A stretch of 63,948 nucleotides of DNA, filler included, from Raillietiella orientalis (GCA_036172245.1; 3 parts of 3 records of this genome joined end to end with filler, not necessarily neighbours in it); one strand, 5' to 3'. Numbered from the whole stretch's first letter, positions 1 through 61,012 are shown. Notes: generated from the letters alone by a model not told the origin. A program made the numbers and translations.

Positions 1-37
1 CACCACAAAAGCACGTCCACCCTCTCAGGCGGCGGGT

Positions 38-1742
38 TGTTCACACCCGGATGTGCCGGGGCATTTATTTCATAGAAATAAACTAACAGAAAAATTGTCG
101 CGTGGCGAACCCGAAGGTTCACCACTCCATAACAGCTTGCTGGTTACCGGCTCCGTGCCGGAGAGGTCCTTCCGATGCGCGGGGATGGGAAATAAAGAAA
201 AACAAAAAGAAACAAAAAGTTCAAATGTGGGGGGGGAACAAATGTTGTAGGGATGGGAGGGCGGGGAAGGGATCACGGTGCGCGTGGAGAGGTCCTCTAG
301 ATCCTATTCAGGATCCGCACAAGCTGAGTCCTTTCAGCGCCCAAGTGGCGCCACTTGCAGAAACTTCGCGCGAAAACGCGAGTCCAGTGTAAGGCGTTGC
401 CGGTTGGCTGACGCCTTCTTCTGGTGGCGTTCCAAGCCGCCACTATTCCTCTGATGCAGCAGAGGACTGCTACACTAGCGGGCGGGGAGAAGGCGTCACT
501 ACAGAAGAGGCGCCTGAAAACGTCCTTTGGGCCGAATCCGCGCAAGTCCAGGATCGCCGCGAGACGATCCCATAAAGGGCGGATGGCACTGCACTCGATG
601 AGAAGGTGGGGGAAGGTCTCTTTTTCCCCGCACCGGTCACAATAAGGATCCAAAGCCCCCCGGGTTGTGTGATGAAGGCGTGCTTTGAATGGAAGTCCCC
701 AGAGGACCACAAGCAACGCCACATCCTGCCATTTCAGGGGGAGGGATGCACTGTTCCAGGACGCTGGGGGCCACTTCATCTCCTCCGGAGATAGTCCGAG
801 TAGCTCGCCCCAGCGTCGAATTCCGTTGGGCGGGACACTCGGCGTCGCAGCGTCAGCTAGTTCCGGCGTTGGAGCGACGTTAATCGGGCACACCACTTTG
901 GTGTGGCCCTTCGCGCCGCACGTTGGGCAAACCGCGTCCGGGCACCGCTTTTTCAAATGCCCGAACGACTTACAGTTTCCTCAAAATTTAGGTTTCCCCA
1001 CAAACCAAATGTCTACGAACTCGTCGCCAATTTGGAGCTTGTGGGGAAGCTGTACGCTTTCTCGAAGCGTCACGCGCGCGCCTACTCGCCCACTAAATGC
1101 ACCGTTCACTCCGAAGGTGTTGGGCTTTCTCCACATCGCGAAAATGCTTGCGTATTTTTCCAGTTCAGCGCGGATGGCGTTCTCATCCATCCGCTCTGTT
1201 GTCCCTGTTAGGTGGACCACAATGGAGTGGTCCACCGTGTGTGGGAGCAAATTCCTGCCCTCAAATTGTACGGGCGTGCAGAGCATCTTGTGGGTAATTG
1301 CTGCATCCTTGCAGATGAGCTCCGCCAACTGCCCTCCGCTCCGTATAGAGAGGCAAAGAATTTCATGGTCGGCAATGCCCATCTTTTTGATGGCATTGCC
1401 GAACTTTCTCGCCCTTAACGGGGAATATAAATTGCCTACCTTGTACAGCAGGACCGGATTGTATCCCTCCTGTATGTAGGAATTGATTTCGGCGGCGACA
1501 TCGGGCGTTTCCGCCGCTGCCACCGCGCTCCAGGCCCTCGCCGTAGTGGCGGGTTCAGAAGAAGTGGTGGGGCGTGATCCCACCTCCTTTGGCTTGGGAG
1601 ACGCGGTCTCCCCGCCTCCCTCACCTGAAACTGCGGCGTTCACAGGCATTTCTGCCTGTCAACGGCCGCGAAACTCACATGAAACACCAGAAAAGAAAAA
1701 CTCCTTATCCACGGAGCGCACAACAATTGCGTCCGCCGTGCA
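38..1742 (-). mobile_element. Internally deleted, non-autonomous L1/Tx1-like LINE (ORF1 fused to ORF2 C-terminal zf-RVT; no EN/RT)
   Basis: ORF1 homologous to the other ORF1 copies (YNPVLLYKVGNLYS, VDIWFVGKP, two CCHC knuckles) runs directly into the ORF2 C-terminus (ELADAAT...CDRCGEKETFPHLLIEC). It is followed by a 3' UTR and the family 3' hairpin at 38-69. Confidence 0.85.
297..1649 (-). pseudogene. Chimeric ORF1p/zf-RVT protein (~450 codons) with one in-frame TGA at 981-983
   Basis: ORFs 981..1649 and 297..956 are in the same frame: ...GKPKF*GNCKSFGHLKKRCPDAVCPTCGAKGHTKVVCP. The TGA replaces the first Cys of knuckle 1. Confidence 0.8.
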
Positions 1743-4083
1743 CCGCGCAGTCACGCGCTACTACTCCTCGTTGGACGCGGAGGAGCCCACGGAACGCAGT
1801 CTCTCCGAGCTGCTCCTTCCGACGGGCAACCCTGCAATCGACGAGGAGGAACGCGCCAGATTGGATTGGCTTTTCACGGCGGAAGAAGTATCTTTTGCCA
1901 TAGCGGGCCTGAAAAGGCGTAAGGCGCCTGGGGAAGATGGCCTGCCCGCGGAGTTTTTTCAGTGCTTCGCGGCGGAGCTCGTCCCCCTGGTGCTAAGCCT
2001 TTCCTCGCTGATGCGTGAGACAGGAGATGTTCCCGCTTCTTTCCGCTCAGCAAAGGTGCGGCTCCTGCCGAAAGGCGGTGATTTGCGCCACCTCAGTAAC
2101 TGGCGTCCGATCACATTGGTGAATTCGGACGTCAAGTTGTTCTCCAGGCTATGGGTCGCGCGCCTGGGGAGAATCGCAGAGTCCTTGGTAAGTCCGGAGC
2201 AGACGTATGCTGTTTCGGGGCGGTCCATGGACGCGAATCTCTTCTTCGCGCGAACATGGTTCGAGTTGCAGCAGCGCGTGGCGCAGCAGAGCCAGGCAGC
2301 CGAAATCGCCGCTGCCAAAGGAAAGCGGCGGTGTTCAATGCACGATTGAACGCCGGGAGCCTTAGCGGTCGCCGTCGATCTCTGCAAAGCGTTCGACAGC
2401 GTAAATCAGGACCTCCTTCTGGAGCCTCTGGGACGCCTAGGGCTCCCGACGCACCTCATCGCCTACTTGCGCTCCTGCTGGCGCTACGCGTTATGCTGTA
2501 TCTCTTTCAGCGGGCGTCACGTGTACGGTGTTTCCATACGGCGGGGTATCAGGCAGAGAGACAGATTAAGCCCCCTCCTCTTCAGCATCTTCTTTGAGTT
2601 GGTTCTGAGGGCGTACAGGCTGACGCTATCCAACCTGCCGAGCTCCTGCCCGGGAACAGCGGCCGTGGCCGCCTATGCTGACGACCTTCTCCTGCTGCTG
2701 CCCATGTCCACCCCGGCGTTCCCTTGGGCGCCTTCTGTTCAGCAGAAGCGTGATCGGACTGCCTTCACAAGGCAGACTGCTCTGGGCCCGCTCCAAGTCT
2801 GCAGGTTTCTCCTGTCGGAACGGGCCTTCGTGTGGAACATTTTAGTTGCCACCCTCCTCCGTCCCCTCTTTTTTGTTTGTCCCCCTCCCTACTCGGCTGA
2901 GCGCCGGGCGCAAGGCCTGTTGCGTAACGCCCTGTGGGGACCGGAGAGGTCCAGGATACGCCTGAAGGACTTGGCGTTTCCTCGGCGGGATGCAGGTTTG
3001 GGCATCCTGACGCTGGAGCCGATCGAACTGCTAGTGCAGTTCTGCATGCTGGCACTTTGTGCGCAGCTCTGGACTACTCCCTGGTGTGCTCCAGCGCGGC
3101 TGCTGCTGCGACGCAGCACGGGTGGCGACGGACTACGTTCGTTGCATTTGCGCACGGAGCGCGCCCAGAGAGCATTCGGCTTCCCTTTGAAACAGCTCGC
3201 CACGCTTCTGGGAAAGCATGAGTGGATCTCCTGCCGGCCGACGAACTTCAACGCCTGGAGGCAGGAAGCCTTATCGTCCTGGGAAGCGCAACAGGATGTG
3301 TCGCGTTTGGAACTCCGTTGCGTGAAACTTTCCCCATACTGTCCAGTGGGGGAGGTGCTGGAAGACCAGGACCAGTGGACACTCCTATTCGCTACGGCAC
3401 TCGCCGCAGCACTGTGTGCACTGATGGTGCGAGATGACAGTGACCTGCCGGCGAGGTGGGAGATCACTAGCGAAATCGCAGGCGAAACCCGACTGCTGGG
3501 CGGCTGGCGGACTTGCGAAGTGGCAGACGCTGCCACAGCTCGCATTCTTGCTAAGGGGCTTCTCCGGTGGAGTGAGCTCCTCGGGGTGCCCACCGATGAA
3601 CTTGTGGTCCCTTCTGCGTGTTTGGACGCGACTCTCTTCCCCCTTCGGTGGAAGAAGGACGCTTTTCTGCTGGTGCATTTGGGTTTGTACTGCAACCAGA
3701 GGGCGCACCTGATTTCCGGTGGAGTTGCGTCCTCGAACTGTGCCAAATGCGGAGCGGTGGAATCGCTTCCGCATTTGCTGTTGGAGTGCGGTGCCCTCCA
3801 GGAGCTGTGGCAGCGGCTGTTTTCAGCGGTCCTGCATCCTGGACACACCGCACTGGATTGGATGCGCCGCTTCTACTCGCGTGGCGAACTTTGTCTTGGA
3901 GCGTTCGACGCAATCATCTGCTGCGTCCGCGCCATTGTCAGAGCCCGCTACGTATTGCAGATGCGGGCAGTCTCAACATCGGTCCCCGACACCGCAGCCT
4001 GCAACCTGCAAATGGCTGCCGGGTGGCCACATCTTGGAGCAAAAGTGAGGATGGAGATCGGCGGCTTTCACCGCCGGTTCTAA
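1743..4083 (+). pseudogene. LINE ORF2 reverse transcriptase + zf-RVT (5'-interrupted, TGA at 2347-2349, deletion after YADD)
   Basis: ORFs 1483..2349 and 2467..4083 share a frame across one TGA. Relative to the copy at 29468-30565, the segment SSLEYFF...YL after LPMSTP is missing. Confidence 0.85.
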
Positions 4084-4290
4084 GAACAGGAACGATTAGA
4101 CTGTAAACCTCTATCCCCGCCCTCCCACCCAGTTTATTTATTTATTGTCCCACCCCCTCCGGTTCCGAACTCTCAGTGTGTCCGTACTGCGTTCCGGGAA
4201 ATCTACTCCCCATTTTCTGTTCCTCTTGCCTCGGAAAACAGTTCTCAGTTGATATCATAATAAACGTCCCGGCGCAACCGGGTAATAAAC
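1743..4290 (+). mobile_element. L1/Tx1-like LINE, 3' part (RT, zf-RVT, 3' UTR, terminal hairpin)
   Basis: RT motifs KAPGEDGLPAEFF, WRPITLVNSDVKLF, VDLCKAFDSV, GIRQRDRLSPLLF and YADD; zf-RVT CAKCGAVESLPHLLLEC; 3' motif at 4259-4290. Confidence 0.92.
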
Positions 4291-5480
4291 GACAACGCTG
4301 CATTCTTCAATTTGCTCGCTTGCCTGCTGTTTTTTCTGGCGGTACGCGAGCTTTTTGTCCATCCTCCTCTCCTTCTTTGGTTTTTGGCCGTTGCCAACTG
4401 CCACCCAGGCTCCTGGCTTGTTCCCTCGACTTGTTCGGCGTTGTTCGCCGGGATCTCGGGTGCGGCCTGGGCCTTGGGCGCGGGTGGCACAGCCTTGGCG
4501 GCATCTTTCGCCGCCAGCCTTCTCTGCAGAAGCCATGCACGTTTTTAAAGGTATCTCTAGGAAAGCACCCGCACTGCTGCTTTAGGGCACACCTCCCTCG
4601 TGTGTCTCATGGTTGCGCATACTTGGCACTGCACATTAAGACACCTCTTTTTGATGTGGCCCGACGTATTGCAGAAGCCACATTATTTCGGTTTCCCCAC
4701 ATACCAGAGGTCGACGGTTTCGCCTTCGACCACCAGTTTGTGAAGAAGAGTGCAGTTCTCATAAACGGTCACGCGCGCAGCAGTAAGGCCGTGCTGCAGC
4801 CCCGTGTAGTCCTAGAAAGGACTAACTTTCGTCCACTGCGCGTGGACCGTTCCAAATTTTCTAGCGCGGCGCGAACCTGTTCCTTGCGCATTCGCGCGGT
4901 ACCACCTAACAGGTGGACCACCATGCTGCGGTCCGCCGTAATAGGGAGGAGCCTGCGCGTCCTTATCACCACGGGGGTTTGAAGCTGTCGTTGGGCCAGC
5001 TCTGCTTGTTTGCAGATGACCTCAACGTACTGACCCCCGCTGCGGATGGTCATAGCGCTGAGCTCCTCCTCTTTCACCTCGAGAGCGCGCATGCCCTTCG
5101 AAAAGGCGCGCGCGTTCTCTAAAGAATATAAATTGCTTACTTTGTAGAACAATGAGGGGTTGTACTTCTCCTCTACATACTCCGACAATTCCGCCGCGGC
5201 TGCAGGCGATGGCGCCGACACAACGGCGCCCCACGCCCGCGCTGCAGGGGGACCGATTCTGTGGGGGCGCATGCCCCCACTTCCATCGCCTCCGGGGGCG
5301 ACGTTGCCGCCTCCCCCTGGCTCTCCATCGCCTCTGGGGGTGGCGTTGCCGCTGCTTCCTGGCCGTCACTGGTGTTCGCGTCATGGATCGCTGCCTGATC
5401 GACCACCGAACCACACGACGCTTGCACTGGGGGAGACTTCCTGGCATGAGGAGCATCGAGAAAACACGTCCACACTAGAG
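4291..5480 (-). mobile_element. LINE 5' part (5' motif + frameshifted ORF1), cut in the ORF1 tail
   Basis: ARAWGAVVSAPS, YNPSLFYKVSNLYS, ADRSMVVHLLG and a knuckle region near 4570-4690; 5' motif GGACGTGTTTT at 5461-5471 (minus). Confidence 0.88.
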
Positions 5481-7541
5481 CACGCAAAGCGTTCGACTGC
5501 GTGACTCAGGATCTCCACCTGAAGCTCCTGGTACGCCTCGGTCTGCCGGTGAACCTCGTGGCCTCTTTGCGCGCCTGCTGGCGGCATTCGCTCAATTTTA
5601 TTTCTTTTAGCAGCTGCCACGTGTACGGCGTGCCGGTGTGCCAGGGCGTCAGGCAAGGTAAAAGCTTAAGCCCATTGCCCTCTAGAATCTTCTTTGAGTT
5701 GGTGCAGAAGGCGTACAGGCTGACGCTGTATAACCTGGAGAGCTTTTGTCCAGAACGCCGTCCGCGGCTTTCTATGCTGACGGTCTTCTTCTCCTTTTAC
5801 CCATGTCTTCCAGTCTCGCGGACTTCTTCGAGGTGATTCGCCGGGGACTGGGCGTAAGCGTAAACCGGAGCAAGAGCGTGGTCGTTCCTATTGGTACGGC
5901 GTGGGAGGGGCAGTCCTTCTGGATCCACCTGGGGATCGCGACTGCTTTCTCCATTTTATATCTAGGCGTTCCACTGGGGAACATCAGCTTAGTGGAAGTG
6001 TAGTGGGACGTTTTCGGAAGGCTACGAGTGCACTGCGCCCGTTCTGCCATGGCAGGTTCGGGCCGCGATATGGAACACTTTCGTTGCCCTCCTCTTGCGC
6101 TTCCTGTTTTTTCTTTGCCCGCCATCAGACTCGGCGAAGCTTCAGGCGCACACCCTGTTGACGAATGGACTGTGGGATCCTGCGCGGTCCAGGTTCCGCC
6201 TGAAAGTCTTGGCGGCTCCGCGTCGGGATGCTAGCTTAGGCATCCTGACGCTGGGGAGAATCGAACTGCTGGTGCAGCTTCGGATGTTGGCCCTGTGCGC
6301 CAACCTTTGTTTCACCACGTGGTGCGCTCCTGCGCGCCTGCTCCTGCGGCAATGTACCGGCAGCAATGAACTTCTGTCGCTGCGACCGCACACGTAGCGC
6401 TCCACGAGTAGCTTCGGTTTCCCGTTTGAACCACTCTACCGGCATTTGGCAGCCCAATCATGGATCTCCTGCCGTTCAACGAACTCTGATTCCTGGTGGC
6501 AAAAACCGTTGCATGGCTGGGAAAAGCACCAGGGTGTTTCTCTCCTGGATCTTCGTTGCATTCACCTCTTCCCGTACTGCACGGTGGATGAGGAGTTCAA
6601 CAGCCAGGAGAAGTGTACTCGCCTGGCCGTCACGCCCCTCGCCGACGCGCTGTCAGCCCTCAGAGCAAGAGATGACAGCTGCGAACCGGCGAGATGGGAG
6701 GTCGCTGCACCATCGTAGGAAGAACACGACCTATTGGCGGCTGTAGGACTTGCGAGCTGGCAGACGCCGCAACGCCTCCCCACATCCCGAAGGGACTATT
6801 TCGATGGAGTGAACTCTTGAGTGTGGCCCCCGAAGAACTTGTGGTCCCTCCCTCCTATATAAACACTTCTGTGTTCTCCCTTTAGTGGAAGCAGTACGTC
6901 ATCATACTGCTGCATTGGGGTTTTCACTCCAACCAGCGGACGAACCTTGTTTCCGGAAGAGTTGTCTCCTCAAACTGTAAGCGGTACGAAGAAGTGGAAA
7001 CACTCCCGCACCTGCTACTGGACTGCGGTGCTCTCCTAGGAGAGTGGCGGAGGCTGGCCTCAGCTCTTCTGCACCAGGGGGACACCACGAGAGACTTGAT
7101 GCGCCGCTTCTTTACGCCAGGCGTCTTTGGGTAATGTCGTTGCAACCGTGTGTTGCACCCGCGCCATCCAAAAGGCTCACCGAGAGTTGGAGACGCTGGC
7201 CAACCTTCGTCAGCTCACCGGATTAGCCAGCACAAGCATGTCGTCGGCTGCCGAGTGGGCTCAACTGCCACAGGACGTAAGGAGAGAGATCGCCGGCATC
7301 CATCGCTGGTTTTGAAAGGAAGGAACGGCGTTACCAAAGTCCGCTGTCTCCGGCCCTTCATATTTTCATTTTTTTTATAGTAGTGTATTTGTGGTCCCCT
7401 CTCTTCCTTTCCGTACTTTTGGCATACCGACCTGCGTGTCTGGGATCCCACCCCCTTCGTCTCTTGTTTTTTCCTTTTTCCAAGAACTCTGTACCTTGAT
7501 AGTTTCTTAATAAACGCCCCGGCGCACCCGGGTGATGAACA
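5481..7541 (+). mobile_element. LINE 3' part (RT from KAFD onward, zf-RVT, 3' UTR, hairpin), degenerate
   Basis: KAFDCV, GVRQGKSLSPL, YADG (mutated YADD), YLGVPLG, TCELADAAT; several stops and frameshifts; 3' motif at 7509-7541. Confidence 0.9.
7509..7541 (+). other. Family-wide LINE 3'-terminal signal (AATAAA + CCCGG-N5-CCGGG hairpin + TGATGAACA); representative copy
   Basis: Also at 38-69(-), 4259-4290(+), 10069-10098(-), 11021-11050(+), 14570-14602(+), 27089-27119(+), 28507-28540(-). Confidence 0.85.
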
Positions 7542-9560
7542 GTTCGTACCCCGCGATGGTCTCGTTCTCCTGGACCTCTGCCGCGGTGTTAACGTGGATC
7601 TCTCGAAGCAGGCTCAGGTCGAGTTCACGCAGGGTGTCGGCCGTATCTCGCCTGTTACCTTGGTCGCGCAGCCCGTTGACATTCCGCGACGACTGTCGAG
7701 CCCAGGTGTTACTCCTGGAAAAGTTGCAGTACGGCGTCCGTCACCTGCTGGGGCGGGATGCTATGTGGAGGAGGAGGGTTATGTGCTCAAGGCACCTGGT
7801 CCCCCTCCTCCATGGGTAACGGCTCGTCGAGCGGGTCACACGCAGTTGGGGTCGCGCCTACCGGTTGGCTCTCCTCCATGGGGGCGGGCTGTTCAGGGTC
7901 GGCGCCTGCAGGAAGGACTTCACCCACCTGCTCACCCTCCTCCATGGGGTGGCCAGCTCGACGGCTTCCGAGCGTGGGAGTTCCCCCTCCGGGAATCTCA
8001 CGCTTCCGCTACCTTTCTGCTTCTCCTCCTCTCTGGTGGAGGGCAGGCGCCTCCTGGGCTTCTGGGGCTAGCGTCCCGACTTCCTGGTGGGCGCCTCCGC
8101 GGAGGAGGACGAACTTCGGTCCCCCAGGTCGCATTCACCTGCAGGGGCCTTCTTTGCTGGAGCCGGCCTTTGCACGGCCTTGCGCGGGAAGTTCTCACGC
8201 TCCTCCGGCGTGGCCGCGAGCTCCTCCGCCGCCTTCGCGTAGGCGGCGTCCTCGCCGGCGGCGAGCGCTTCGCGAGGCTAACCCTCTGTTTGCACAGAGG
8301 GTTCGCCGTCGCGAACCTCGGGCGCGCCAGAAACGGCGAGGGGAGGCTCGTCGCCCCGGGTGGCAGCCTCGGGAGCGATGACGAGTTTCAGTGCTACCTA
8401 GCACTCGCGGAAAGTTTTCGATCGCGTACCGGGTTTCTTTGTTTTCGCGATCTTCTTTTTCCCTGCTTTCTCCGGTTCTTCGTTGGAACCCTTCCTCTCT
8501 TTTCTGGCTTTTACAACCTGCCAGCCTACTTAACCTTCTTATGCTTGGTACGGTTGTTCCTCCGAATTTTGCGCCGGAGGTTCAGGTGCTGGCAGCTTCT
8601 CCCGTCCACTTTCTGCCTTCGGTCTTGCGACCTTTAATGCGCGTTTCCCCTGCGCTTTTTTGGCGGCAGGAGGAAGCGGGGTGGGGCGCTTGGGGCACAC
8701 GCACCGAACGTGACCTCGTTCTTCGCACAGGTAGTACTATATGTTCGGATACCTTTTGCGTAGGTGTCCTACTGTGTTACAGTGCCCACAGTAGCGTGGT
8801 TTTCCCACGTATCAGAGGTCTACGGCTTCCTGGGAGAACTCGAGCTTGTGAGGTAGCGCTCTACCCTCCTTCACGGTGACACACGCTGCGGCCTGGCCCC
8901 CGAAAACGCTATTGTAGCCCTCAAAAATAGAAGCTTTTAACCTCAGCTCGTGAACCTCTCCGAATTTTTTCAATTCCTCACCAACCGCAGACCGCATCAT
9001 GCGGCTGGTGATGCCGGTCCGATGCACCACTACGGAGCGGTCCATCGTGACTGGTAGGATCTTGCGCCCATCCCTGTCCAGCGGGGTGGTGATCAGACTT
9101 TGCGTCAAGTAATTTCCTTACAGACAACCTGGACCCGCTGACCCCCGCTAAGCACGGAGAGGCCGTCACGATCCTTTGCTAAAAATATTGGCGTTCTGCA
9201 GCGCTTTCGTGAAGGCGCGTGCAGTTCGCCCATAGAAAAGCTTGCCTACCTGGTAGAGTAGCGAAGGTTCATAACCCGCTACCTTGTAGGCTTCCATCTC
9301 GGTCATGGCTTTCGCGCTAGGCGCGGCACCCATGGCTCTCCAACTCCTCGCCTTGCGCGGAGAGGGCGATTCCGGGGATGATGGCCCTGTTCCATTTGGC
9401 TGTGGGGGAGTACTAGCCTCCCCCACGCTTACATTAAGCGCAGTGTTCTCTGGCATCGTCGCCATCGGACACCGGCGATGTGTGAAAACACGAATACTAG
9501 CAAAGAAACTCTCTCCAAGCCTGGCTGACGAAGCGTGAAAAAAACACGTCTGTACTCGAC
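7542..9560 (-). mobile_element. LINE 5' part: 5' motif, degenerate ORF1 (ATG 9465 to TAA 7709) and start of the APE endonuclease
   Basis: Colinear with the copy at 60992-63050 (SPRKARSWRAM, YEPSLLYQVG, MDRSVVVH, three PMEE repeats). An EIHV-containing EN start lies at 7542-7690. Confidence 0.88.
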
Positions 9561-10068
9561 GAGTGGAATCTGGGGACCGGGTCCGCAACGAAAATTCGTA
9601 TTTGTATGCCCGTGGTTACGCGAAGAAATCAACGTACGTCGCTTGGCAGAATACCGCGTCGAGACAGAGAGCGAAGCCTGGCAATCCGGGTCGGCCAGCT
9701 TGCTGGACGACCAGTGCCGGGAACACATATCCCCGGCGTCGGTACGGAATCTCCTGTTGTGCTATTATTCCTCCCTTTATGCGAGACCCCCCCGGTACGA
9801 GACGATTTTTGGCGCTTGCTTCCAGATGCTGCCCTTGTAATAGGGGAGGAGGAGAAGTTGAGCTCCGACGAGCCTTCTACACCGGCAAAATTCTCGCCGG
9901 TAACCAAAGGCTCAAGAGGCGTTAAGCTCCTAGGGAGGACGGCTTGACCGCAAATTTTCTCCAGTGCTTAGCGGAAGAACTGGCACTCCCGGTGCTTCAG
10001 TTGACAAGACTGATACGAGACGAAGACTTTGGGCAGCCAAGATAAACCACAGGAGCAACGAAACGTTG
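9561..10068 (+). mobile_element. Degenerate LINE ORF2 fragment (EN-RT linker to RT start)
   Basis: NVRRLAEYR..EAWQSG, YYSSLYAR and APREDGLTANFLQC match 63770-63930 and 1760-1990. Confidence 0.8.
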
Positions 10069-10690
10069 ATGTTCACCCGGATGAGCCGGGACATTGATTT
10101 TAAAAATTCTTACAAAGCAAAATTTCATGATAAAATCATTTGTTTTCAATGTTTGGTTTTTCTTTTATTTTTCTGGTCGACACACATGACCAAACTGTCT
10201 TCGGGCACTTATCCTTACCGACCCGTAAGTCTATAAAGTTCCCTATTGGCGCACGGGATGCAAGAAAACCAAAAAATAGATTGAAATAAGCAAACAACAA
10301 AAACGATGGAAGGCACAAGGTTTTTTTGGAGGGGAGAAAAGGGAAGGGATCACAGTGCACCGTAGAAAGGGCTTTGTATCCGGGTTTGGATGCGAAGAAG
10401 TGCCGACCAATTTTTTGTGAAGTCGCCTCCCACGGGAAGACTTCTGCAAAGAGACGGTTGCTCAGTGATAGCATTGCAACATCTTCGTCCTCTCCTTGTT
10501 GCCGTCCACTTCTCCAGAATTCCGCGTAAGCAGCAGAGCACTGCTACACCTGCGGGGCTGAAATGTGTCTTGCAACTGGAGGCGTCTAAAAATGTTTTTT
10601 CGGTCGCCAATGCCACAATGTGTAGGGCAGATGAGTGTCTATCCCTCATCTGGCGGAGAGCAACACACTCCACCATCTCTTTGCAGGAGG
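10069..10690 (-). mobile_element. LINE 3' end (zf-RVT tail, 3' UTR, hairpin)
   Basis: VAVLCCLRGILEKWTATRRGRR matches VAVLCCIRGIVAAWNATRRRR of 297..956; CCCGG-CTCAT-CCGGG-TGAAC at 10071-10090 (minus). Confidence 0.8.
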
Positions 10691-11052
10691 CGTCAATTCA
10701 GTGCGTACTAAGAAAACTTCTGTTGGCACTTGGTGGCATCCATACCCGGATGCAAAGGCCTCCATACGGAGTACCGCGATCAGTTCTATTCCCCCCCCCT
10801 TCCAAAAAGCATTGTCTTCCCAGTCGTTTGCTTTTTTTTTTTCCCTGTATCTTTTTAGCCTTCTGAGCCTGTGAAGAGGTCCTTACCTGCTTGAAGCTCG
10901 GTAAGGACAAGTGTTTAAAGACCTTCAGAACTCTATCTGCTGAAACATAAAAAAAAAAATCTTTATTGATTTTTTTAAAAGACAGCGTTTTATGGAATTT
11001 TGATACAAGAAAATTTCAATAATAAAAGCCCCGGATTACTCGAGTGAAGATC
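10691..11052 (+). mobile_element. LINE 3' UTR fragment with degenerate terminal motif
   Basis: Similar to the reverse complement of 10070-10430; AATAAAAGCCCCGGATTACTCGAGTGAAGA at 11021-11050. Confidence 0.7.
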
Positions 11053-13700
11053 CACGAAGATTTACTCGACTACGCTTGAACTAGATTATGAAAAACCCAC
11101 GCAACTTGCTGTTGGCCCCTTCTACCTTTCCTCCTACCTTGCTGCTCTTCCTCACGAACACTAGGGACTGAAACATTCGGGAACTGTTGGAGGTGTCCTG
11201 TTTCGTTGAAGGCACAAGGAAACTCTTAGAAGCGTGCACGATACAAGAGTTATTCGACGTTTCGTCTTCGAGCCCAAGTCTAAAACACTTCTGCATCGAA
11301 GCGAACTGCTCGGACCATGATCTTTTTGAGGACTGTGTCAAGATGATCTCGCGAAAATAATTTAAAAGGAGCGCATGTCAGATGCCGAAGACGAATCTAA
11401 ACGAACAGTGATTTACTTCCTGCCTTCCCTTCCTACAATAAATGTTTCTTCTTTTTCAATTCTTTCCCTTTATTTGTGTATTTCTTTTTCCTTTTCTCTT
11501 GTCCTTCAAGATCAGCGTTGTGTAGAAGAAGTTTATTGATGGATACTTCGACATATCCGGTTGTTAGACATCGTTTGGGGTTGAGCATTTCCAGCTCTTC
11601 TCGTAGGGCGGGCACTCTGTCCTGCACTACCAGATTTGGCGCTCAGCGCTTGCCTTTCACTCTGCAAGATGCTCGACGTCAACGATTCTGGAAACGGTCA
11701 CCGTCTGCAGAAATTCTCAATTGTTAGCTACGACTTCCCCGGATCCGCGTGGAAGGCGATGCAAAGAGAACCGGCTGCAGAGCTCTCCGACAAGTCTTTT
11801 GAAATGGTCACTGTGCGAATGTTTTTTGATTTCGAAGTCGCAAAGACGCTGACAAAGATGTTCAGCAGCTTCCCAATAGCTATGCAATTCCCTTTATAAG
11901 CTCCTGTTGTTTTACGGAAGCCTCTTGCTTATCGTGAGAAGCTCGAATCTATGCTGGTCCGACAACTCAGGTCGTATTTTTCCTGTCCTCTTTACGCGGG
12001 AATACAGGTTATAATCGAAGACCAAATGAACCAGCGATCTTTCCTTCCTAGGTTTCTGTCCTTGAAGTTGGTTGCATGCACATACGCGCACATCTAGATG
12101 GCTAGCGAGCACACCCTTGAGCACATGTAGTCGTCCGAAAGCAGGCAGACTTTGAAGTCCCTCGCGAATATGCGAACCAATAATGGGCTGAAGATCTTCA
12201 GCCAGTGGCACTGCACTTTGCAAAAGAATACTATCATTTTGGCGAGACAGCTCACGCCACTCGGCTCGTAGACGTTCGTAGCGAAAAGATCGATTGACTC
12301 GCACCATTTGACGACAGCTTGGTAAAATAGACTGGTCTTGTCGTAACGAACGCCATGCATTGATTTCTCCAATTTGCCTGTTGCGAGGAACGTCACTGCA
12401 TTTGTCCGTCCGACACCGCACCACAAAGGTGGCTTTCCCTCATGGCGTTGCTCTATTTCGGCAGGGTTTAATATTGGTAGGGTTTCTTTTTTGTAAAGTC
12501 GCCAGTTTATGGTGCTCATTTATGACTTCCAAAAGCTCATGGGAGTCTATTTCTTATGATTCTATGATTCTTGCTGGAGTTAAATCAAAATTAGGAGGGT
12601 ATGGAACGGTGAAGTATAATTATGGAAGAGAAGAAGCACGAGCTCCAAGGAGTGAACGACGTTTCCCACTAGTCTCCTCTTTTCGGCGTCTTGAATTTTG
12701 GTCACGTTCGCGCAAGCAACATACTGATGCCTATAAGACGCATTTCCTCTTAAAAGTTCCGAGGAGATGTCAGCTGTTTGCTAGTTTTATCCGTCAGAAG
12801 GACAGGGAGCACACCACTGGTTGGACGCCAATTTCGCCCACGGCTGCCCTCGCTCTGCATGCAGCCGTGTAGAAACTCTGCAGTGCTTCCCTGAATCTTC
12901 TTCTTCTCTTCCTCAGAAGCTAAGCACGTGCACCCTATTCACCTGCTTCCGTTTTCAAGGTCTTGTCCTGGTTCTTTATCCTGAGAGACTCTGGCAATTC
13001 TGCCGAACGCGCAGACTTGTGGTAGGGGAAAAACCAATCGATGATCCCTCAAAAGCAACTTCATGAAAGTCAGGAAAGACTGCCTCTTTGCCTTCAGAGA
13101 AAAACTGGCCGTGTTTGCTAGCTCCACGGCAGTCCTGACTTTGGGTACGTGATCACAGCGTCTCTTTTGGTGACGGTTGTTTCCCGGATGCGCGCGATTT
13201 CTATAGCGAATCGCCTTATCGCGTGAGGAACCTTCCCACGAGTCCTCACCGCGCAACGCTTTTCCGGGAATCACGGAATGTAGTTTTCGAGCGCGTCTTG
13301 TAAGCTTTTAATTTCTGCTCTTTTCTACAACCGTGCGTTTTACTTTACCATCGTCGGAGGCGATCGCGTATCACTACCCGACAACTTCCGAAGTTTCCTC
13401 CACGGCCGACAAAGGCCCTGCCTTCGCAGCAGCTTTGAACGGCTTCTTCTTGGTCTCGTCGGCAACTGTTAATGCTCGTCCTCTCACTGTGTAGGTGTGA
13501 AACGGTTCTCAACTGCGTGCCTGCGCGCGGTAACTGTTTTGGAGTTCCGACTTTCCAAGGTAGATTTTTCCTGCCTCCGTCGAGACATAAACGGTAACCA
13601 GTACCTGCGGTGGATCGTTTTCAACCCACAAAAGCTTTTGTGGACTTCATTCACCCTCCTTGCACCGTGCTATCCTCCCTCAAAGAAGCAAGGGACATAA
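11053..13700 (-). mobile_element. Highly degenerate LINE: probable ORF1 tail, APE endonuclease and linker
   Basis: GRTNAVTFL...GVRYDKTSLFYQAVVKWCESIDLFATNVYEPSG aligns with the EN at 62873-63292. ELSDQH resembles LSDH. DHFKRLVGELCSRFSLHRLPRGSG resembles DLFKASVREFCEEFLLHRLPPGFG. Confidence 0.65.
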
Positions 13701-16548: not shown

Positions 16549-19079
16549 CTACACAAAATTAAATTCGGTGACATTTTAAAATACTTAAAAACTTTGGAGC
16601 AGAAAGGAGAACACCAACATGCACAATTAGAGCATTAAATTTTTTTCATAGGAAAAATCTAACTTCAAATGCAACAAATACCCAGGAAAGCATGCAGAAA
16701 GCGAGAATAATTTACCCTGAAGAAAACAAGAAGAAATAGTTTCTCAGAGACTCAAGTTCAGTCGCCATACTACCCAAGAGCAATTACTTCAGGAAAAAAT
16801 AAAACAGTTGTAGACACCACTTCTTCAGCTACGGCAGAAGAACTAGAAAACACAAAATGAAAACCATGCCAAAGAGAGTAACAATGCCCATCTCCTGCTT
16901 CAGCAATCATCCTTACAACGAAAAACCAGATTCCCCAATGCATCCTGCCTCCGATAGGTCCAAACAGAATGAGTCCGAATAACCAATGCCGCACTCTAAC
17001 GCAATGCACTAATAACGCATCTGAAGGAATAAGCAATTACGCAGACTGCAGACCTATAAAAACCGTGGTCAACACTTGCAACGAAATGACTCAAACTTGT
17101 GCAGAACACACAGCTTTCGAAAACATCCCACTCCAGTACACGTGATGCAAAGATCCAGGATACCCAGCTGAAGGGGCGTTTGCTGCCAGACGGAGATGCA
17201 AAGCGAGTACAGAATCAAGACGACAAGGTGCGTGCGGCTCGTCGAGAGAAAGCTGTGATAGCAATTTACCAATTCATCAAGCCACACGGCGAAGAACTTT
17301 ATGTTCCTACTCCAAACGTCTTGGCCGCTGAGTTCTTGCAACGGTTCCCATTCACCAGACCTGCAAAGAGAGATCCGGATACTCGCTGAATGATATGCAT
17401 GTCGAGACAGAAAGATATGGCAGCCTGACAAATCGTCCACAGCAAGAGGTGATGTTGAAAAGACAATGGGAAGCTATCGGAATTCGTATCAGTCTCTCTG
17501 TTTGAATCAGTTGCAACTCGCTGCAAAATACTGTACAGTACGGTGCAAATGCAACAAGATGTCCTTCAGCTAAAACATCACGACAGATCCATCCAACACT
17601 CCTGACACTCATCTCTTTTACGTGCATCGTTCCGTGTTTCCAACGCAACTCACCCCACTATCCAGCAGATCGGCTACGATAATGCTCACTTTCTCGCAAA
17701 AAAGGTAACGAGCGTACCGCTCTTAGCTCATAGAATCCTAGAAGTTGTTCCCACTGCCAGCATCGGCTGCGTGTACGCCATCGCCATATACATTTCCCGC
17801 GAGAAGAACGATATATTTAGACGATAGTGTAAGAACGATAGATTATTCAAAATACCGTTTAGATAGCCTGCCGGCTAGCCAAGGATACTTTGAGGAATTT
17901 TTTTGCAGGTGAGGCAGTCTCGAGCAGAGTGGTTCTCCTCCAGAGATATTCATTGAAACATCAGCAGGAACATTAGCCATGAACCCGGCGCGCGTTTCAC
18001 TCGCCTCCACTTCCTGTATAGTTTGCGAAACGGAAGAGCGATGTACTGCGCAGACTGAAGAGCATCGTCCAAGAAGGTGTGACGCGGTTGCATCCAGTTC
18101 AGAGTTCAGCCGTTACAGTTCCGGTCCTTACTGCGTCATCTGACTTTCTAAATTCAAAGATTTGTAAATCAAACGAATATCCAGAAGAGCCCAATTCCAG
18201 CAAGCAGACTGGAAAAAAACCCAATGCACGACATGAGCGAGCGTCAGCACAAAGAGTTCAGGTGCAAAATGAGGTGCAAGAAGCAAACGAAAGGGAAAAG
18301 CAAAATAATTTTCACGATAACGGATGGGTTCATCGTACGAGAATGAACAGAGGAAGGCAAATTGTTCCTCAACACGGAAATAAGCAAGAAGCTCACAGCT
18401 ACGATGCAGACCACTGTAACGTAGAGCCGAAAGTGCCTGATGATGCTACCGCATCTACTTCAAACCATCGCTGCAGCCAAAAACAAAAAATGGCAACACT
18501 CATCGAAGAGAACGGATCCGAATCCAAGTGCCTTTTCCGGATGCGCTATTAACTTTTCGAAAGCTGAACTCTTCTGTGTGGACGGAAGCCGCTAATAGCA
18601 TAGGAAGGCAGTTCCTACTTGGAAACGGAAAATAAAGACCCAAGTGAAAAGGAATTGATTGCAAAAGACATTTATGCTGCACAGAGACAGACTCTTCAGC
18701 TTCGTCCATGACGATTCAAGAGAGAAGATCTTGAATTTCGGCAACGCGTGTTCATAAAAGGCTGATCTCGCAAAACCGCAGTGCGATGGCTCCTTAGTGA
18801 TACGCTGCAATAAAACTCCAGACGCTATAAATACACGTTTTTTGGAGTAAAATCCATGGGTTGGTTGCTCGAAGGAGCAGAAGCTTGAAGATTTTATTAT
18901 CGCCGTTCTTTGTAAAGTAATATTTCAATGTCGATAGATGCCTTAGAGTCTAGTCGGATGAAGTAGAAATTTCTGGGAATCTAACTCGGATAAGATTGAC
19001 AATTTTCATCAAGCGTAACAAGTCAATGCAGTACGGAGGTGCTGATCCATGCGGTTCTGCTCACTGGTGGACAAAATGT

Positions 19080-19920
19080 GCACAAAGCAGAAAACGCATT
19101 TTGGTGGAATGTCAACCCTCTCCATCGTGATATTCCCTGTGCGAAGCAATCGAAGGCAATATGAACTTTTACTAGGGAATTCTTATGCTTAAATTCCATG
19201 GAATATTCTGCGAGATCAATTCACCTTACGCAAAGGGAAGCATGCTGGTTACAAGAGCATCTCTAATCAAATTGCAATCTGCGCTCTAAAAGCCATTTAG
19301 CAATCCCTCGGGGGACTGAGCCACTGACGCATCACAGATGCACTTTTCTCCAGCTGAGGTTCACCAGGTGAGGTTGCAACGATGAGAAAAGCAGCCAATG
19401 CTAAAGTCACGAAAGCGTTTTTTCGTTGCCTTTTCCGGTTTCACGGCACCTGCCAAAAATTGAAGGTTGTCTGGAATTAATTGAGTGCCTCCTTCAAGTT
19501 CAAATACAGAGATGCGAAAATGTTTGTGGACTGGAGCACACGGATATTTACACATCTTGCACCACAATACGTAATTTTCATTCGATAAGTGGATTTTGGG
19601 ATTTCAAAGTTGATTTTCTTCATGTTTTCTTGTGTACCAGCAGTGTGCAAGAAAGTCGACTTTTCAGAATGGAACAATGATGCATTCTTATCTTATTGTT
19701 CACTTTTTAAAGATCAACCGCGGCCGTTTCTAAAATCAAGAAATTGGGATGAAATGTTGCTTCACATCATAATTAACTGCACCAGGCCAAATTGCCTGTT
19801 CGCCAGGCGTTTCCTTGCGATCCTGAGAGGGATAAAAATGCTGCGGCGGATATAGCCATATGAATGAAGCAGAGGACTCTGTGGGTAGAATCGTGTTTGC
19901 CACGAGATCTGTCACTGAGA
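19080..19920 (-). repeat. Arm 1 of a diverged ~0.8-kb inverted duplication; decayed hAT-like transposase segment
   Basis: Reverse complement of ~21850-22680 (e.g. TTTCACGGCACCTGCCAAAAATTGA, GCCATTTAGCAATCC). Translation IPDN...GCFSHRCNL resembles the hAT DN...CxxHxxNL signature. Confidence 0.7.
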
Positions 19921-21849
19921 AAGGGAATAGGTATGACTGTGTCAGAATTCTGCTGCAGGTTCGAAGTTAGAATGCAAACATTTAGTTCATTCAAGAGACA
20001 CCAAATGAAAAAAAATCAACAAGTGGTCCTCTAAATAACCACGAAGGAGAAGCACTGCAAATTGCATGTCTTTATTGTAGGTCCATCACAAGCCTGGGAT
20101 CGTAAAAATGTGGGCGTAATGTATGACGTGGAAGTCGTAGGATATTTTTGGATGTGCTGACGCTCTTTATGGTGAACACGTGCATCCAAAAACACTGAAG
20201 ACATTTGATGTAGCAGTTGCTACAGGGAGTACACCGAAAGGAAATGAAGGAGATTCGCAGTCGGAAAAAATCTGCGTACTGCGCCGGTGGGAATTAAGCA
20301 TCAGAGTGCCCAATGCTGCAAGCGCACCACAATCAGCGACGACGAGTGCCGCCTTTTTTCGAACGAGGAGACCCAGAAGAATAATGGAAGCCCTTACTCT
20401 GATCTCTTACTGAATTGTAATTCCAAATAAACAAACCAAGTTTATTTTGAATCGATGGGAAGAAAGAAGGATTACCTTTGTTTGAGTTCTGTAAGGAAAT
20501 GAGATGATGAAGGAAACTGGAAAATCGACTGCAGGGGGAAAGAGTAGGGAGTGTGGATCCCTTGAAAACTGATGGGTTGCGATCGTGGAATACAGAGAGC
20601 ATACAGCTGATTGCGGGCTGGCATTTCTTCAGAGATTCTCTTTCTGGTAGAAAGATGTGGAAGCTCAGACTGTTGAAAGGCTGTTGGATTTTTTGTAGAA
20701 AGTGGAAAGGGACGGTATATGGAAGAAAGGTTCCAGTATGCAAGTGCGAATATTTGTTATTGAGAATAGATGTTCGATTGATTTCACGGACTGAGTGGTG
20801 AGATACATTGGTGGTATCTTGAATGTGCTTTTTTGCGAAAGCCATTTAGTTATATGGGAGTGCAAGTAGTTCTTTCTTCAAGTTCTTAAATTGTCATTGC
20901 AATAGATGAATTTATAACGGTCATATGCTAGAGATGATAATTTCTCGATTTCGAGGGGTGTGAACGCACCCCTCGAAATAGTTGGCGACACGCACCGAAA
21001 ATAAGAAGACAAACAGAATTGCTTCCTGCTGCTCTCCGTAGCAAGAAGCTGAGTTCGAATCACTTTCCACGGAAACAAGTGGACGTCTATGACACTCGAA
21101 CGATGCTAACCTTGGCCTCAAAGAAACGTGAAAGAAATTTCAGGAGACCTTTGGCTTGTGTATCAACAAGCCTGCAGCGTGTCGTGATTAGCAAATGAGG
21201 AACATCTCTTTCTTATACCACAAGAGCAGCAACACAAGAAAAAGTAAGCACAAGGACTGAAAAACTCGAAAAAATTGGAGTACCGCGAGGGTTGCTTTGC
21301 TTGGATGAATGGCAACACTGAATACATGGAACATTCGACGCCGTGCTTGCAGAATTCGCTACATGGAAACTGTAAAATGATGTGACGAACCGAAAGCAGC
21401 TCCCCTGCCGCGTAGCTGAAGATTTAAGTGAGCTGATGTTGTGGACTGCCAAACGTCGAACGTTTGGTAAGTACGGCGAGTTGTCCGAATGGATTCTGTT
21501 CTGCATTCCCTCTTTCAAACAGGCCAGGGTACAACACTTTCATTTCAGAATAAATTTCAGGTTCTTCGTGCTAACTGTAAAAAAAAAAGCAAAAGCCATT
21601 TCATCACCAGATACACACACGCAAAAGAAGAAACGGAAAGATCAAACAAAGATCCTTTACCATTCAGTTGAGAAAGGCAGCAAAGTTTGCGAACGTTTGC
21701 GGGAACACCGTTGTGTGAAAACAAAGCTTGGCAGAGATCTGAACCTTTTGCATCAAATGGAGACAAGAAATAAGTTTTAATCTAAACATTGCAAAAAAAG
21801 GTTATTATAGCACGTTTGGTGTCATATTCGAATGGTTCCAGGGAAACTC

Positions 21850-22680
21850 TTGTGCAGATCTAGTGAGCAATGCTGAGATTGGAACAACAGGAATTTGCCG
21901 AGCAATTGGTTTCTCCTGCTGAAATCACTGCGTCATCTAGACATTTCGTAAGAAAAACATTCTGCACATCGTATAGTGGCGGCGTTTGATCTTCGAAAAG
22001 CAAACCGTTGGATAGCAATGCATCTTCATGCCCTCATGAAAAGTAGAAATCCCTGCTGGCTCCTGGTACATAGAAAAAAATGAAAGAAAATCAACTTCGA
22101 AACAAGTTCGAAACAGCACAAGCGTCATCCACGGATGAAAATGATCCACCGTCATCCACCGTCATCGGATGAAAATCAACTGGTGGCGTGGTACAAAATG
22201 AGGAAACTTCTGTAAGTTTCAGCCCACACGCCTATTCACATTTGTTCGTTTGAACTTGAAGGGGACGCACGAAATCCCAAACAAACGTCAATTTTTGGCA
22301 GGTGCCGTGAAACCTGAAGTGGCAATGGAACAACGCTTTCGTGATTTGCAGGGTGGCTGCTTTTCTCATCGTTACCACCACACTTCGTAAATAGCAGCTG
22401 GAGGGGAGTGAACCTGTCATGAGTCAGTTGCTCAGTCCCCCGAAGGATTGCTAAATGGCTTTTAGCACGCAGATTGCAATTTGGTTAGAGATGCTCTTGT
22501 AAGCAGCATGCTTCCCATCGCGTAAGGTCAATTGATCTCGCAGAATACTCCATAGACTTAGAGCTTAAGAACGCCCTACTAAAAGGTCAAATTGTTTTTG
22601 ATTGCTTCGCACAGGAAATATCTTCATCATGATGGAGGGTGGAAGCTTTTCGCCGAAATGCGTATTCTCACTTGCACTGG
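21850..22680 (+). repeat. Arm 2 of the inverted duplication; decayed hAT-like segment
   Basis: IPNKRQFLAGAVKPEVAMEQRFRDLQGGCFSHRYH versus IPDNLQFLAGAVKPEKATKKRFRDFSIGCFSHRCNL in arm 1. Confidence 0.7.
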
Positions 22681-24767
22681 TCAGAGTCCTCGTTCTGGAA
22701 GGAAACTAAGTGATAAGAGAAGAAGATTCAATAAGAAAAACAAAAGGTCTTCTTCTGCCTACGGATTTCAGTTCTGATGACTGAGCGTGCTACTGATCAT
22801 GTCGCATCTAGAAAGCATTAGCCAGAGAAACCGAGTGGTTCCTCTGGAGAATCCGCTTAAGATGGAAGCAAACAGGAAAAACTGGAAGGAAACGACGAAT
22901 AAAACTCAAGAATATAGTTTGGAATCTTTCAGGAGGAGCTGGAGCCCACGTATCACAGAGTATTCCGTTAACATCTTCTCAAGGATGTCTGCGATCTCTT
23001 GGTTACGTGAGATTAAAAGTTATGCGGATACTGTTCCACAACAAAAAAAGAAATCGCATGGGCTACCTCTGACCCTGTCCACAAGATTCTCTGCAGCAGA
23101 CGAATAAGGGAGAGACGAAATTGCCGAGAGCGAAGATGCTCCTGAATCATTCCTTCCAACGATTTAGTGGTAAATGGAAGAACGCTATCTGCCGCTTTCC
23201 CCCCACAACAGAGGTCAACGCTTAGGTGTAAAAAAGTATTCGCTCTTGCTTTTACGGACAAAACGCGTGGAAAACCTGTGGAAGAGCTGACTGCTTTTCT
23301 TCGATGAGAGCGATCTCTGAGTCGCATGGGATCCTTCCCGATTTGTTATTCCTATGCTTTGTTCCCTTCTAAAGAATGCGCCGAATGCACCGCGCATGTG
23401 TCGCTCGCAAGCAGCTATTCCTCATCCACTGCATACAATTCCATGCCCAAAACTCACGTCTGACTTCATTCCCGGGAGAGCCCCCTCAACGTGAGCAGGG
23501 AATGCCTCGCACGGGTGTTTTTCCTGCTGCTTATCGAATGAAAAGAAGCAAACACCGAGAAAGGCAGAGTAATCGTTTCCCCTTATCAGTCAGCCATATC
23601 TTTCCTTTTTAATATGCATAGCATTCTTAGAGCATCCTGTGATCTCTTCTTGAGCGTAATGTGTGTGGAAATCGTTAAAGGAAGTCGGTGGTTAAGTCGT
23701 TTGTAGTAATTGCGAAAAGTTCTTCGCAGTGTGGTCGCTTGGAATGGTTAATTGCAATTTCTGCTTTCTTTAGACGCGCTGCACGCAGCTTGTTTGGTCT
23801 TGCTTCTGCACCCTCTCTGATTCTCCATCTGGAAGCAAACTCCCCTACAGTGGGAAACCTGCATCTTTGCATCACGTGTACTGGGGGGTGATGATTTCGT
23901 GAGCTGTTGGTGTTGGACAAGTTTTGTTCTTGTCGCTACAGGTGTTGACCGCGGTTCTTATTGGTTTGCGGTCTGCAGAGTTTCTTATTTCTGAAGAAGA
24001 TTTGGTGAAGTTCTGTAGGACGCGGAATTCGTTATAAGGTCTCATCCCGTGTGCAGTTATGGAAGTCAGGATGCTGTGGCGAATCTTCTTCTCCTACGTA
24101 AGGGAATCCATCTGCATATCAGCGTTTCTCCTCTTGAATTCTGTTTTTTTCTGTTAAGAACTTTCTTATCTGGCGTACTTTTTAGATTCATGTTCTGGGA
24201 ACCTTTTTTTTTTTTTTTGGGCTTGCAATTTCTCTTTTGAACGTGTTTGTATTGTCCAGAGGATCTTCGTCATTCCACTGTGCCTGCACTGTCTGTCTTT
24301 TTGTGTTTCCTTGGAGATTGGGATTTGTTGGCGCGTGTTTCGATTGTGCCTTCATGCAGTTTACTTCGTATGTACTCTTTTGCTGCTCAACGTACGGTTC
24401 TGCTTAAGTGGCTCTATGAATTTTGTTGGATGTCCTATAGAATGGTTTGCTTTTTGTTGATATTTCTAGTCGATTGATTTCTCCAAAGTAGTACTGACAT
24501 TTTCACTTCACCCACTGAGCGGTCTTTTATTTGTTCAATTTTGTGTTCTCCGCGATGTTCGATGCGTTTTCCCATCTCATTGCAGTATGCAAGCAGTTCA
24601 ATGTATTTGGAACGAACGACTGTGCCAAATGGTTGTCGTTGTTCTCTTTGGAGAAATACGCTCGTTCTTTTGATTGTGTTATTTTCAAGAGCACTTGCCT
24701 TAGCGTGAAGGAGCATGCCAGTTGTAATGTGATGATTTCTTTGCTCTTTTCCTTTCCTTGATACCCT

Positions 24768-24985
24768 CTGCAGTTCGACGCTGTCGTCAAACAGCCAGCT
24801 CTCTTCCTATCTTTCCCCATAATAAAAGACTTCAAACATTACTGCAAACATTTACGAAAAATAGAAACGACAGCATCAGCAACAACGAAGTGCGCATAAG
24901 TGTTACGAGAACCAATGCAGAAGTCTTTTATTGAGGGGAAAGATAGGAAGAGAACTGGCTGTTTGACGACAGCGTCGAACTCCAG
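24768..24985. repeat. Fold-back element: 66-bp inverted arms with an 86-bp loop
   Basis: 24768-24833 is the reverse complement of 24920-24985 with 4 mismatches. Confidence 0.9.
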
Positions 24986-30600: not shown

Positions 30601-30988
30601 CTCCAAGGCGGACGTGTTTTCTCGGTGCCTCTTGTGCCAGGATGTCTTCCCCAGTGCAAGCGTCGTGTGGTTCGGTGCTCGATCAGGCAGCGATGCCTGA
30701 CGCGACCACCTGGGATGGCCAGGAGGCGGCGTCAACGTGGCCCCCAGAGCCGATGGAGGTGGGGGCATCCGCCCCCACAGAATCGGTTTCCGCTGCAGCG
30801 CGGGCGTGGAACGCGGTTGCGTCTGCGCAATCGCCTGCAGCCGCGGCGGAATTGTTGGCCTATGTAGAGGAGGGGTATAACCCTTCATTGTTGTACAAGG
30901 TAGGTAATCTCTATTCCTTAGAGAGCGCGTGCGCCTTCTCGAAGGGCATGCGCGCTCTCGATGTGAAAGAGGAGGAGCTCAGCGCTAT
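30601..30988 (+). mobile_element. LINE 5' end and ORF1 start (ATG 30642), truncated by the assembly gap
   Basis: GGCGGACGTGTTTT at 30607-30620; ARAWNAVASAQSP..YNPSLLYKVGNLYSLE; paralogue of 5050-5480. Confidence 0.88.
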
Positions 30989-31088
30989 NNNNNNNNNNNN
31001 NNNNNNNNNNNNNNNNNNNNNNNNNNNNNNNNTTAATTAATTAANNNNNNNNNNNNNNNNNNNNNNNNNNNNNNNNNNNNNNNNNNNN
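30989..31088. other. Artificial contig linker
   Basis: 44 N + TTAATTAATTAA (stops in all six frames) + 44 N. Confidence 0.97.
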
Positions 31089-60756: not shown

Positions 60757-60856
60757 NNNNNNNNNNNNNNNNNNNNNNNNNNNNNNNNNNNNNNNNNNNN
60801 TTAATTAATTAANNNNNNNNNNNNNNNNNNNNNNNNNNNNNNNNNNNNNNNNNNNN
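60757..60856. other. Artificial contig linker
   Basis: 44 N + TTAATTAATTAA + 44 N. Confidence 0.97.
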
Positions 60857-60991: not shown

Positions 60992-61012
60992 CTCGAGAGC
61001 GGACGTGTTTTT
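60992..61012 (+). promoter_or_regulatory. Conserved LINE 5'-terminal motif (GGACGTGTTTT), candidate internal promoter; representative copy
   Basis: Also at 30601-30620(+), 5461-5480(-), 9541-9560(-) and 7-28(-). In the four copies where ORF1 is visible it lies just upstream of ORF1. Promoter function is inference. Confidence 0.5.

Follow-up and report, generated by a model that had tools for sequence, protein, structure and literature searches.

The two head-to-head junctions in this 63,948-nucleotide stretch of Raillietiella orientalis DNA (GCA_036172245.1; the whole stretch, hereafter the window) most probably each mark the 5′ end of one LINE family, B2, inserted antisense, through target-primed reverse transcription, into the reverse transcriptase (RT) codons DLxKAFDC of sibling LINE families. 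From comparison of the sequences we put the probability of this reading at about 0.88. Across the copies compared, the insertion point proves fixed and the events many and independent. The first 10 kb of the window form an alternating nest, in the order B1 (minus strand), A1 3′ half (plus), B2 5′ part (minus), A2 3′ half (plus) and B3 5′ part (minus). The elements of this nest and those of the second junction are as follows.

39–1716, minus strand: LINE B1, internally deleted, with the N-terminal half of ORF1 fused to the C-terminal zf-RVT region of ORF2; head-to-head with A1 (from the ORF list and Pfam).
1717–4290, plus strand: LINE family A1, 3′ half; its 3′ end lies at A1's recurrent antisense site in B2 ORF1.
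4291–5482, minus strand: LINE family B2, 5′ part (5′ UTR and N-terminal ORF1; open frame 4769–5365), 89% identical to the first 1.2 kb of full-length B2.
5483–5496, plus strand: 5′-side copy of the 14-bp target duplication, reading RKAFD; putative first nick at 5496|5497.
5497–7541, plus strand: host LINE family A2, 3′ half, with the rest of RT, a C-terminal zinc motif and a 3′ UTR ending in AATAAA-hairpin; decayed.
7549–9563, minus strand: LINE family B3/F5, 5′ part (5′ UTR, ORF1 and EN start), which hosts the A2 3′ end at A2's recurrent antisense EN site.
28507–30584, minus strand: second A2 host, 3′ half; its 3′ end abuts the ORF1 tail of a distant family (plus strand).
30585–30598, minus strand: 5′-side copy of the 14-bp target at the second junction, reading HKAFD; the uninterrupted A2 allele is RKAFD.
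30599–30988, plus strand: second B2 copy, 5′ 390 bp, cut by the contig end.

The junction strings are exact at 5461–5497 (plus) and 30620–30584 (minus), as an earlier, sequence-only reading of this DNA had given them, and the two copies are as diverged as it claimed, with 80.4% identity between 5052–7541 and 30988–28507. The B2 parts differ by 15% and the host parts by 21%, at least as much as an average pair. The aligned stretch is bounded by the contig end (30988) and by the 3′ terminus of the host. Past those 3′ termini the hosts are again different, as it had noted: an antisense EN region at 7549, and ORF1 of a distant family on the plus strand at about 27440–28090. Two of its details need correction. 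The boundary that it drew at 5480 is misplaced: element-linked sequence reaches 5485 at the least, and probably 5491. Within 5483–5496, the RNA leader of B2 has probably templated the initial 3 to about 9 bases, and the first nick would fall after TTCGA, at 5496|5497. The antisense part, which it described as antisense ORF1, is no ORF1-only piece but the 5′ part of a full-length LINE, ended at 4290 by the later insertion of the A1 3′ end, and at 30988 by the contig end. The A1 3′ half itself carries an uninterrupted target site, DLCKAFDS, at 2377–2400.

Other features lie around these junctions. In B1, the zinc-knuckle region of ORF1 continues in frame into the C-terminal zf-RVT region of ORF2, and B1 may be a non-autonomous family, because near-identical pieces recur at loci L031, L036, L045, L050, L066 and L067; at L036 and L045, its 5′ end joins the EN–RT linker of A1 at the identical point. 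A second recurrent head-to-head junction, between the B3/F5 5′ end and the EN–RT linker of another family (9563–9700 and 60857–61000), is common to two contigs at 73%. Nested inverted repeats of 72–78% pair 16928–17431 with 23583–24086 and 19089–19594 with 22154–22668, and a self-inverted stretch occupies 24768–24985; the inverted repeats within 16928–24985 are probably decayed elements. A 180-bp satellite with 164.5 copies (31209–60756) belongs to a separate contig, set off by N spacers at 30989–31088 and 60757–60856, and adjoins the LINE nests only because of how the window was assembled. The same nests also contain, at L064:2420–4801 (minus strand), the ORF2 of a far more distant LINE, 30% identical to B2 and with the motif DMEKAFD. 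An Rfam search of 4000–10200 gave no match, nor did a phage search.

Genome-wide junctions and the independence of the insertions

The sequence-only reading had reckoned with the case that just these two instances exist; genome-wide, the assembly of 491 contigs holds about 200–230 junctions. A 311-bp junction query against this genome returned 40 scored matches of 1116 candidates. With up to 1 mismatch, a pattern of the B2 5′ end alone is found 204 times; lengthened into the (H/R)KA codons and allowed up to 2 mismatches, it is found 232 times. Each reversed control gives 0, which puts the junction far outside what chance would yield. The B2 3′ end has 298 genomic matches. In 10-kb stretches from 37 loci, B2 is at many of them continuous through ORF1, EN and RT to its own 3′ end, beyond which the 5′ half of the host appears. 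All 18 B2 end-pairs (8 read through, 10 paired by coordinates only) are flanked at the 3′ side by host RT codons ending DLxKAF (15) or by another B2 (3), and the three tandem pairs have a single target copy between the elements. Sixty further full-length 5′ ends, the first 60 new ones among 100 listed matches of the B2-only pattern, are without exception followed by an (H/R)KAFD-like 14-mer, which leads into RT in 50, into the 3′ end of a tandem B2 in 8 and into other sequence in 2. The hosts comprise at least seven RT families, often merely 60–80% alike, with A1 included and B2 itself rarely.

Twin priming, in which the RNA 5′ end of a 5′-inverted LINE meets an interior position of that very element head-to-head, yields just this geometry of an antisense 5′ end against sense mid-ORF2, and on geometry alone it fits. 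Its probability is nonetheless close to nil, as the two halves come from different families and the antisense part has its own RT and 3′ end, with the 5′ half of the host beyond.

A more substantial alternative is movement or duplication, as one unit, of a bidirectional composite that consists of the antisense B2 5′ part and the sense RT half. The sequence-only reading had left this open beside targeting of the RT site by one subfamily, and had proposed comparing the two halves over all instances. In that comparison, made on clean A2-host loci with 1.15 kb of B2 and 1.55 kb of host, a Mantel test on shared derived bases finds the B2 and host halves uncorrelated (r=0.01, p=0.38, n=24), in line with repeated site-specific insertion. 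A single duplicated pair lifts r to 0.15 (p=0.014) when the duplicate L049 is included (25 loci). The controls inside each half do correlate, at r=0.23 (p=0.002) for one and r=0.35 (p=0.0002) for the other. Secondary insertions in some rows had distorted the test on an earlier set, hence the restriction to clean loci. Near-identical duplicates were dropped throughout (L031, L034, L048 and L193/194; L098–L100 from the 3′-end sample). Because the trees of the halves are star-like, with few supported forks, the case for incongruence is carried chiefly by the Mantel test and the diversity of host families. Two B2 'subfamilies', a and b, suggested by a 380-bp tree, fail over 1.15 kb and are mere terminal tags, so the two window copies are not assigned to different subfamilies.

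True duplicates do exist, as a composite would produce: hosts at L044/L049 are 97% identical, L033/L034 and L046/L048 are duplicated, and window positions 1–11917 match G000:C53:173936–185852, on another contig, at 98.9% over 11.9 kb, either as a recent segmental duplication or as an alternative haplotype. Some junction copies are therefore plain duplicates, a caveat to repeated insertion. Many loci also repeat a multi-junction stack (A1 3′ end, B2, A2, B3 EN), but such stacks are expected without movement as a unit, because A1 and A2-like ends each repeatedly hit a fixed site of their own. Against the composite stand the completeness of B2, with its own RT and 3′ end and host halves on both sides, the spread of hosts over many RT families and the lack of correlation between halves. 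As a general account it is largely refuted and highly improbable, and it is true for individual duplicated segments; of the two alternatives in the sequence-only reading, targeting of the RT site is the one that stands. The left half of the nest is absent within 11 kb of the first junction in its C53 duplicate, and the contig end cuts the second. Both window junctions thus stay unclosed on the left, and their origin as insertions is drawn from class membership.

The B2 element and its target site

B2 is an L1-group LINE of autonomous type, about 5.55 kb long (5,484–5,576 bp at 8 loci), with ORF1, an APE endonuclease, RT and zf-RVT. Pfam models Exo_endo_phos, RVT_1 and zf-RVT match B2 and sibling frames, and the nest families are all of L1-group type. 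The zf-CCHC model scores above cut-off in two sibling ORF1 frames and CCHC spacing is visible in window frames; the B2 ORF1 frame of the window, which ends before the knuckle, has no zf-CCHC match. The best solved-structure match across linker and RT is LINE-1 ORF2p (E=8e-41, with R2 at 4e-14), and DLRKAFD aligns to DAEKAFD of human LINE-1 ORF2p at D600, a catalytic aspartate. Protein-database searches returned no named close relative, the relatives found being at most about 30% identical, bar two unnamed fragments, and the protein and structure search matches include no named Tx1 reference. Where human L1 nicks T/A-rich DNA and has a poly(A) end, B2 appears to cut a GC-rich quasi-palindrome and ends AATAAA-hairpin-GAAAA straight on the target, with no 3′ poly(A) tail in any of 38 ends. 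Every family here has a 3′ end with AATAAA and then a CCCGG...CCGGG hairpin with family-specific loop, again without poly(A) (window positions 4268, 7518, 60 (minus) and 10090 (minus), and many loci); the hairpin folds better than shuffles in 1 of 4 ends. Target-site duplications of 13–15 bp flank 5′-truncated B2 copies.

On the B2 strand the preferred site is GCAG^TCGAACGCCTT, the reverse complement of the K-A-F-D-C codons, and B2 is therefore always antisense to its host. The target duplication is about 14 bp and begins at TCG(A). Of 41 B2 3′ ends retrieved in contig order, 3 were duplicates; 26–27 of the remaining 38 lie at the RT site or a regenerated copy of it and 11 lie in unrelated DNA (17 RT and 4 tandem classified by script, 5 RT by their flanks at L076, L079, L082, L096 and L173, L092 ambiguous, 11 unrelated). 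ATC follows the element's GAAA at 38 of 38. Off-target copies have duplications of 13–15 bp that start TCG(A), with the exception of L176, which starts TCT; these are often preceded by GCAC, GCAG or GGCG, and the sites retain little beyond TCG(A). Since off-target duplications also begin at TCG, the cut site is read from the target, and the constraint on both sides of the nick argues for an endonuclease rather than pairing of the RNA tail alone. The base just past the nick is C in 25 of 31 filled A2 sites and in 20 of 67 uninterrupted ones (p=3e-6). The 9-bp core GCASTCGAR occurs 10,086 times in comparison with 671 uninterrupted DL(H/R)KAFD(C/S) sites, so that the core alone does not explain why the RT site takes about 70% of the 3′ ends sampled. 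In our proposed scheme, the B2 endonuclease would read the RT-site sequence and nick the coding strand of the host after TTCGA, the second nick following about 14 nt away; judged from the duplication boundaries, both this recognition and the placement of the nick are likely.

Alternatively, insertion may be only weakly directed by sequence, through the TCGA core, and the RT site may dominate because long insertions elsewhere are purged or because chromatin in LINE clusters is permissive. The sparse off-target sites, with little more than TCG(A), fit this, as does the length of the copies there: none of the 11 off-target copies exceeds 1.1 kb, and of the 27 on-target copies 13 reach at least 1.49 kb (p=0.006), a bias that is compatible both with purging of long copies and with leader-aided completion. 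Weak direction would, however, have to account for the same base being struck every time inside clusters, and for the RT-site share in the face of so many core sites; purging would not single out one codon in kilobases of LINE DNA that is just as dispensable. We consider it improbable and retain recognition of the RT site by the endonuclease.

Bases of the 5′-side duplication

The 5′-side duplication often has the bases of B2 instead of those of the host, which suggests a leader carried by the element. Its first codon tracks the B2 terminal tag across hosts, being CGC in 14 of 14 junctions with one tag (p=4e-11) and CAT in 7 of 8 with another (p=2e-8). In hosts with the AAA allele, the 5′-side copy reads AAG in 15 of 20 and keeps the host base in the other 5; the 3′-side copy keeps host AAA in all 6 informative pairs. 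In GCA hosts, position 9 is altered in 6 of 10. At L183/184, both flanks match uninterrupted A1 at 97–99% and the 3′-side copy has A1's allele, while the 5′-side copy differs by three bases toward the B2-typical form before A1 sequence resumes past the nick. L191/192 is alike in a different host; across both loci the flanks match one uninterrupted family each at 92–99%. Among A1 hosts, the non-host bases end at or before the nick in 4 of 5, and a host-specific base two places past the nick is retained. Differences beyond the nick at L062 and unlike flanks at L195/196 point to recombination at these two loci. Among the 60 full-length 5′ ends there is no clear case of B2 at an unrelated site (L242 is ambiguous).

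A full-length B2 RNA may begin inside the donor's upstream target copy, such that the end of its cDNA would pair with the 14-nt overhang and prime the second strand precisely, and donor bases would thereby be written into the 5′-side duplication. By analogy and from these allele patterns, we moderately favour this combination of a target-derived leader, overhang pairing and donor-base writing. Its rival also accepts site-specific insertion and traces the mismatched 5′-side copies to ectopic gene conversion that took place afterwards between junction copies of B2. As every flank is homologous RT, tracts could extend outward from B2; L062 and L195/196 look recombinant, the terminal tags form no clades over 1.15 kb of B2, and the AAA-host junctions that keep the host base would also fit. 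But the non-host bases stop by the nick in most A1 hosts, and the 3′-side copy keeps host AAA throughout, though conversion from the B2 3′ end could equally alter it. Conversion is on this evidence the less likely account but a serious rival, and a templated leader remains the one that we prefer.

A T-to-G change in the 5′-side copy (KAFD to KAVD), considered as a heritable mark of the leader, was rejected: it also lies beside 5′-truncated B2 (L264, L267), is found at three distinct uninterrupted RT sites of 20 and crosses all terminal tags. It occurs in 11 of 31 A2 junctions, 9 of 59 others and 0 of 67 uninterrupted A2 sites. The change is a mutation hot spot at position 10 of the 14-mer, frequent in the 5′-side copy beside full-length and truncated B2 alike (for example L032, L185/186, L264 and L267) and rare where the site is uninterrupted, and it extends the palindrome around TCGA; a quasi-palindrome template switch at integration is possible. 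Separately, the antisense strand of the B2 5′ UTR is open and in frame with the C-terminal half of the host RT (L032:6570–8498, L043, L052), and predicted stop-free frames of over 640 codons span the B2–host junction at these three loci.

Sibling families, known systems and meaning

The siblings of B2 have recurrent sites of their own. Of 30 sampled A1 3′ ends, 15 are antisense in B2-type ORF1, at one position or close to it, and A2-like 3′ ends lie antisense at the EN start in 8 of 30 sampled, one of them a duplicate; these fixed sites of A1 and A2 would build the alternating nest of the window. The RT motif of B2 itself uses different codons: 153 B2 sites stand uninterrupted, and of the 52 junctions assigned to a host family 2 lie in B2. 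A2 has 67 uninterrupted sites as against at least 26 filled, in a sample enriched for A2 by the first query. Together these counts suggest that B2 spares its own RT motif (self-avoidance), but this is tempered by the enrichment for A2 and by B2 being probably the younger family. It is conceivable, although we hold it at somewhat below even odds, that the families form a guild in which sibling endonucleases are tuned to each other's coding motifs (RT, EN start and ORF1), with B2 adding self-avoidance, through its different codons at the motif, and a target-derived leader that overwrites its site.

Tx1-clade LINEs are described inside transposons (PMC4494074), with Tx1 in Tx1D (piggyBac), Tx1-Mar in Mariner-N4_AMi, Tx1-8_Crp and Tx1-4_AMi in LTR retrotransposons and Tx1-9_AMi in Harbinger. 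B2 resembles the target-specific Tx1 elements as an APE-type, L1-group LINE with fixed site and orientation inside a mobile element, and by the measure used there for target specificity, more than 20% of flanks in one repeat (PMC4494074), it qualifies with 26–27 of the 38 sampled 3′ ends and no fewer than 58 of the 60 full-length 5′ ends at the RT site or a regenerated copy. What sets B2 apart from these Tx1 elements is its target, the conserved catalytic motif in the RT of sibling LINEs, together with the fixed sites that the siblings have in one another. In its behaviour, B2 is like a target-specific Tx1 or R1 element. Zepp and ZeppL of Coccomyxa and Chlamydomonas (PMC8226300) are L1-clade elements that form nested clusters via insertion into existing LINE copies. 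There, Zepp targets itself and builds tandem arrays mostly of 3′ ends, whereas B2 strikes one base, antisense, in mostly other families and is often full-length; B2 itself hosts so few of the assigned junctions that self-insertion of the Zepp kind is not its pattern. For R1A of the Drosophila melanogaster type, PMC2718515 infers full-length transcripts with upstream target sequence that anneals at the 5′ junction. The R1A group is, like B2, site-specific and APE-type, with a 14-bp duplication in its ancestral form (PMC2718515). As there described, R1A targets 28S rDNA and has a leader with a 9-bp target deletion, in contrast to B2, whose inferred leader would overlap the duplication and replace host bases. 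The general list of targets of site-specific LINEs in PMC5035012 includes transposons. In a literature search with limited coverage of subscription journals and Repbase Reports, no paper described a LINE whose target is the RT motif of its siblings. New here are the genome-wide counts, the independence test of the halves and the replacement of alleles at the 5′ junction.

The targeting by B2 is real, with ordinary basic chemistry and an unusual target. Known site-specific LINEs use rRNA, snRNA and tRNA genes, microsatellites, telomeres and other transposon classes, all of them safe multicopy sites. The harbour of B2 would be self-renewing, because selection acting on the rival LINEs preserves the protein motif that it targets; every insertion also cuts the RT of a competitor in two at the catalytic motif. 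With several close relatives among its endonucleases, each directed to a different site, this genome offers a natural series for the gain of APE specificity. Allele replacement at the 5′ junction, for its part, gives genetic access to second-strand priming, which of all steps in LINE integration is understood least. The guild, if true, would be a case of LINE hyperparasitism, in which families mutually disable one another, with self-avoidance.
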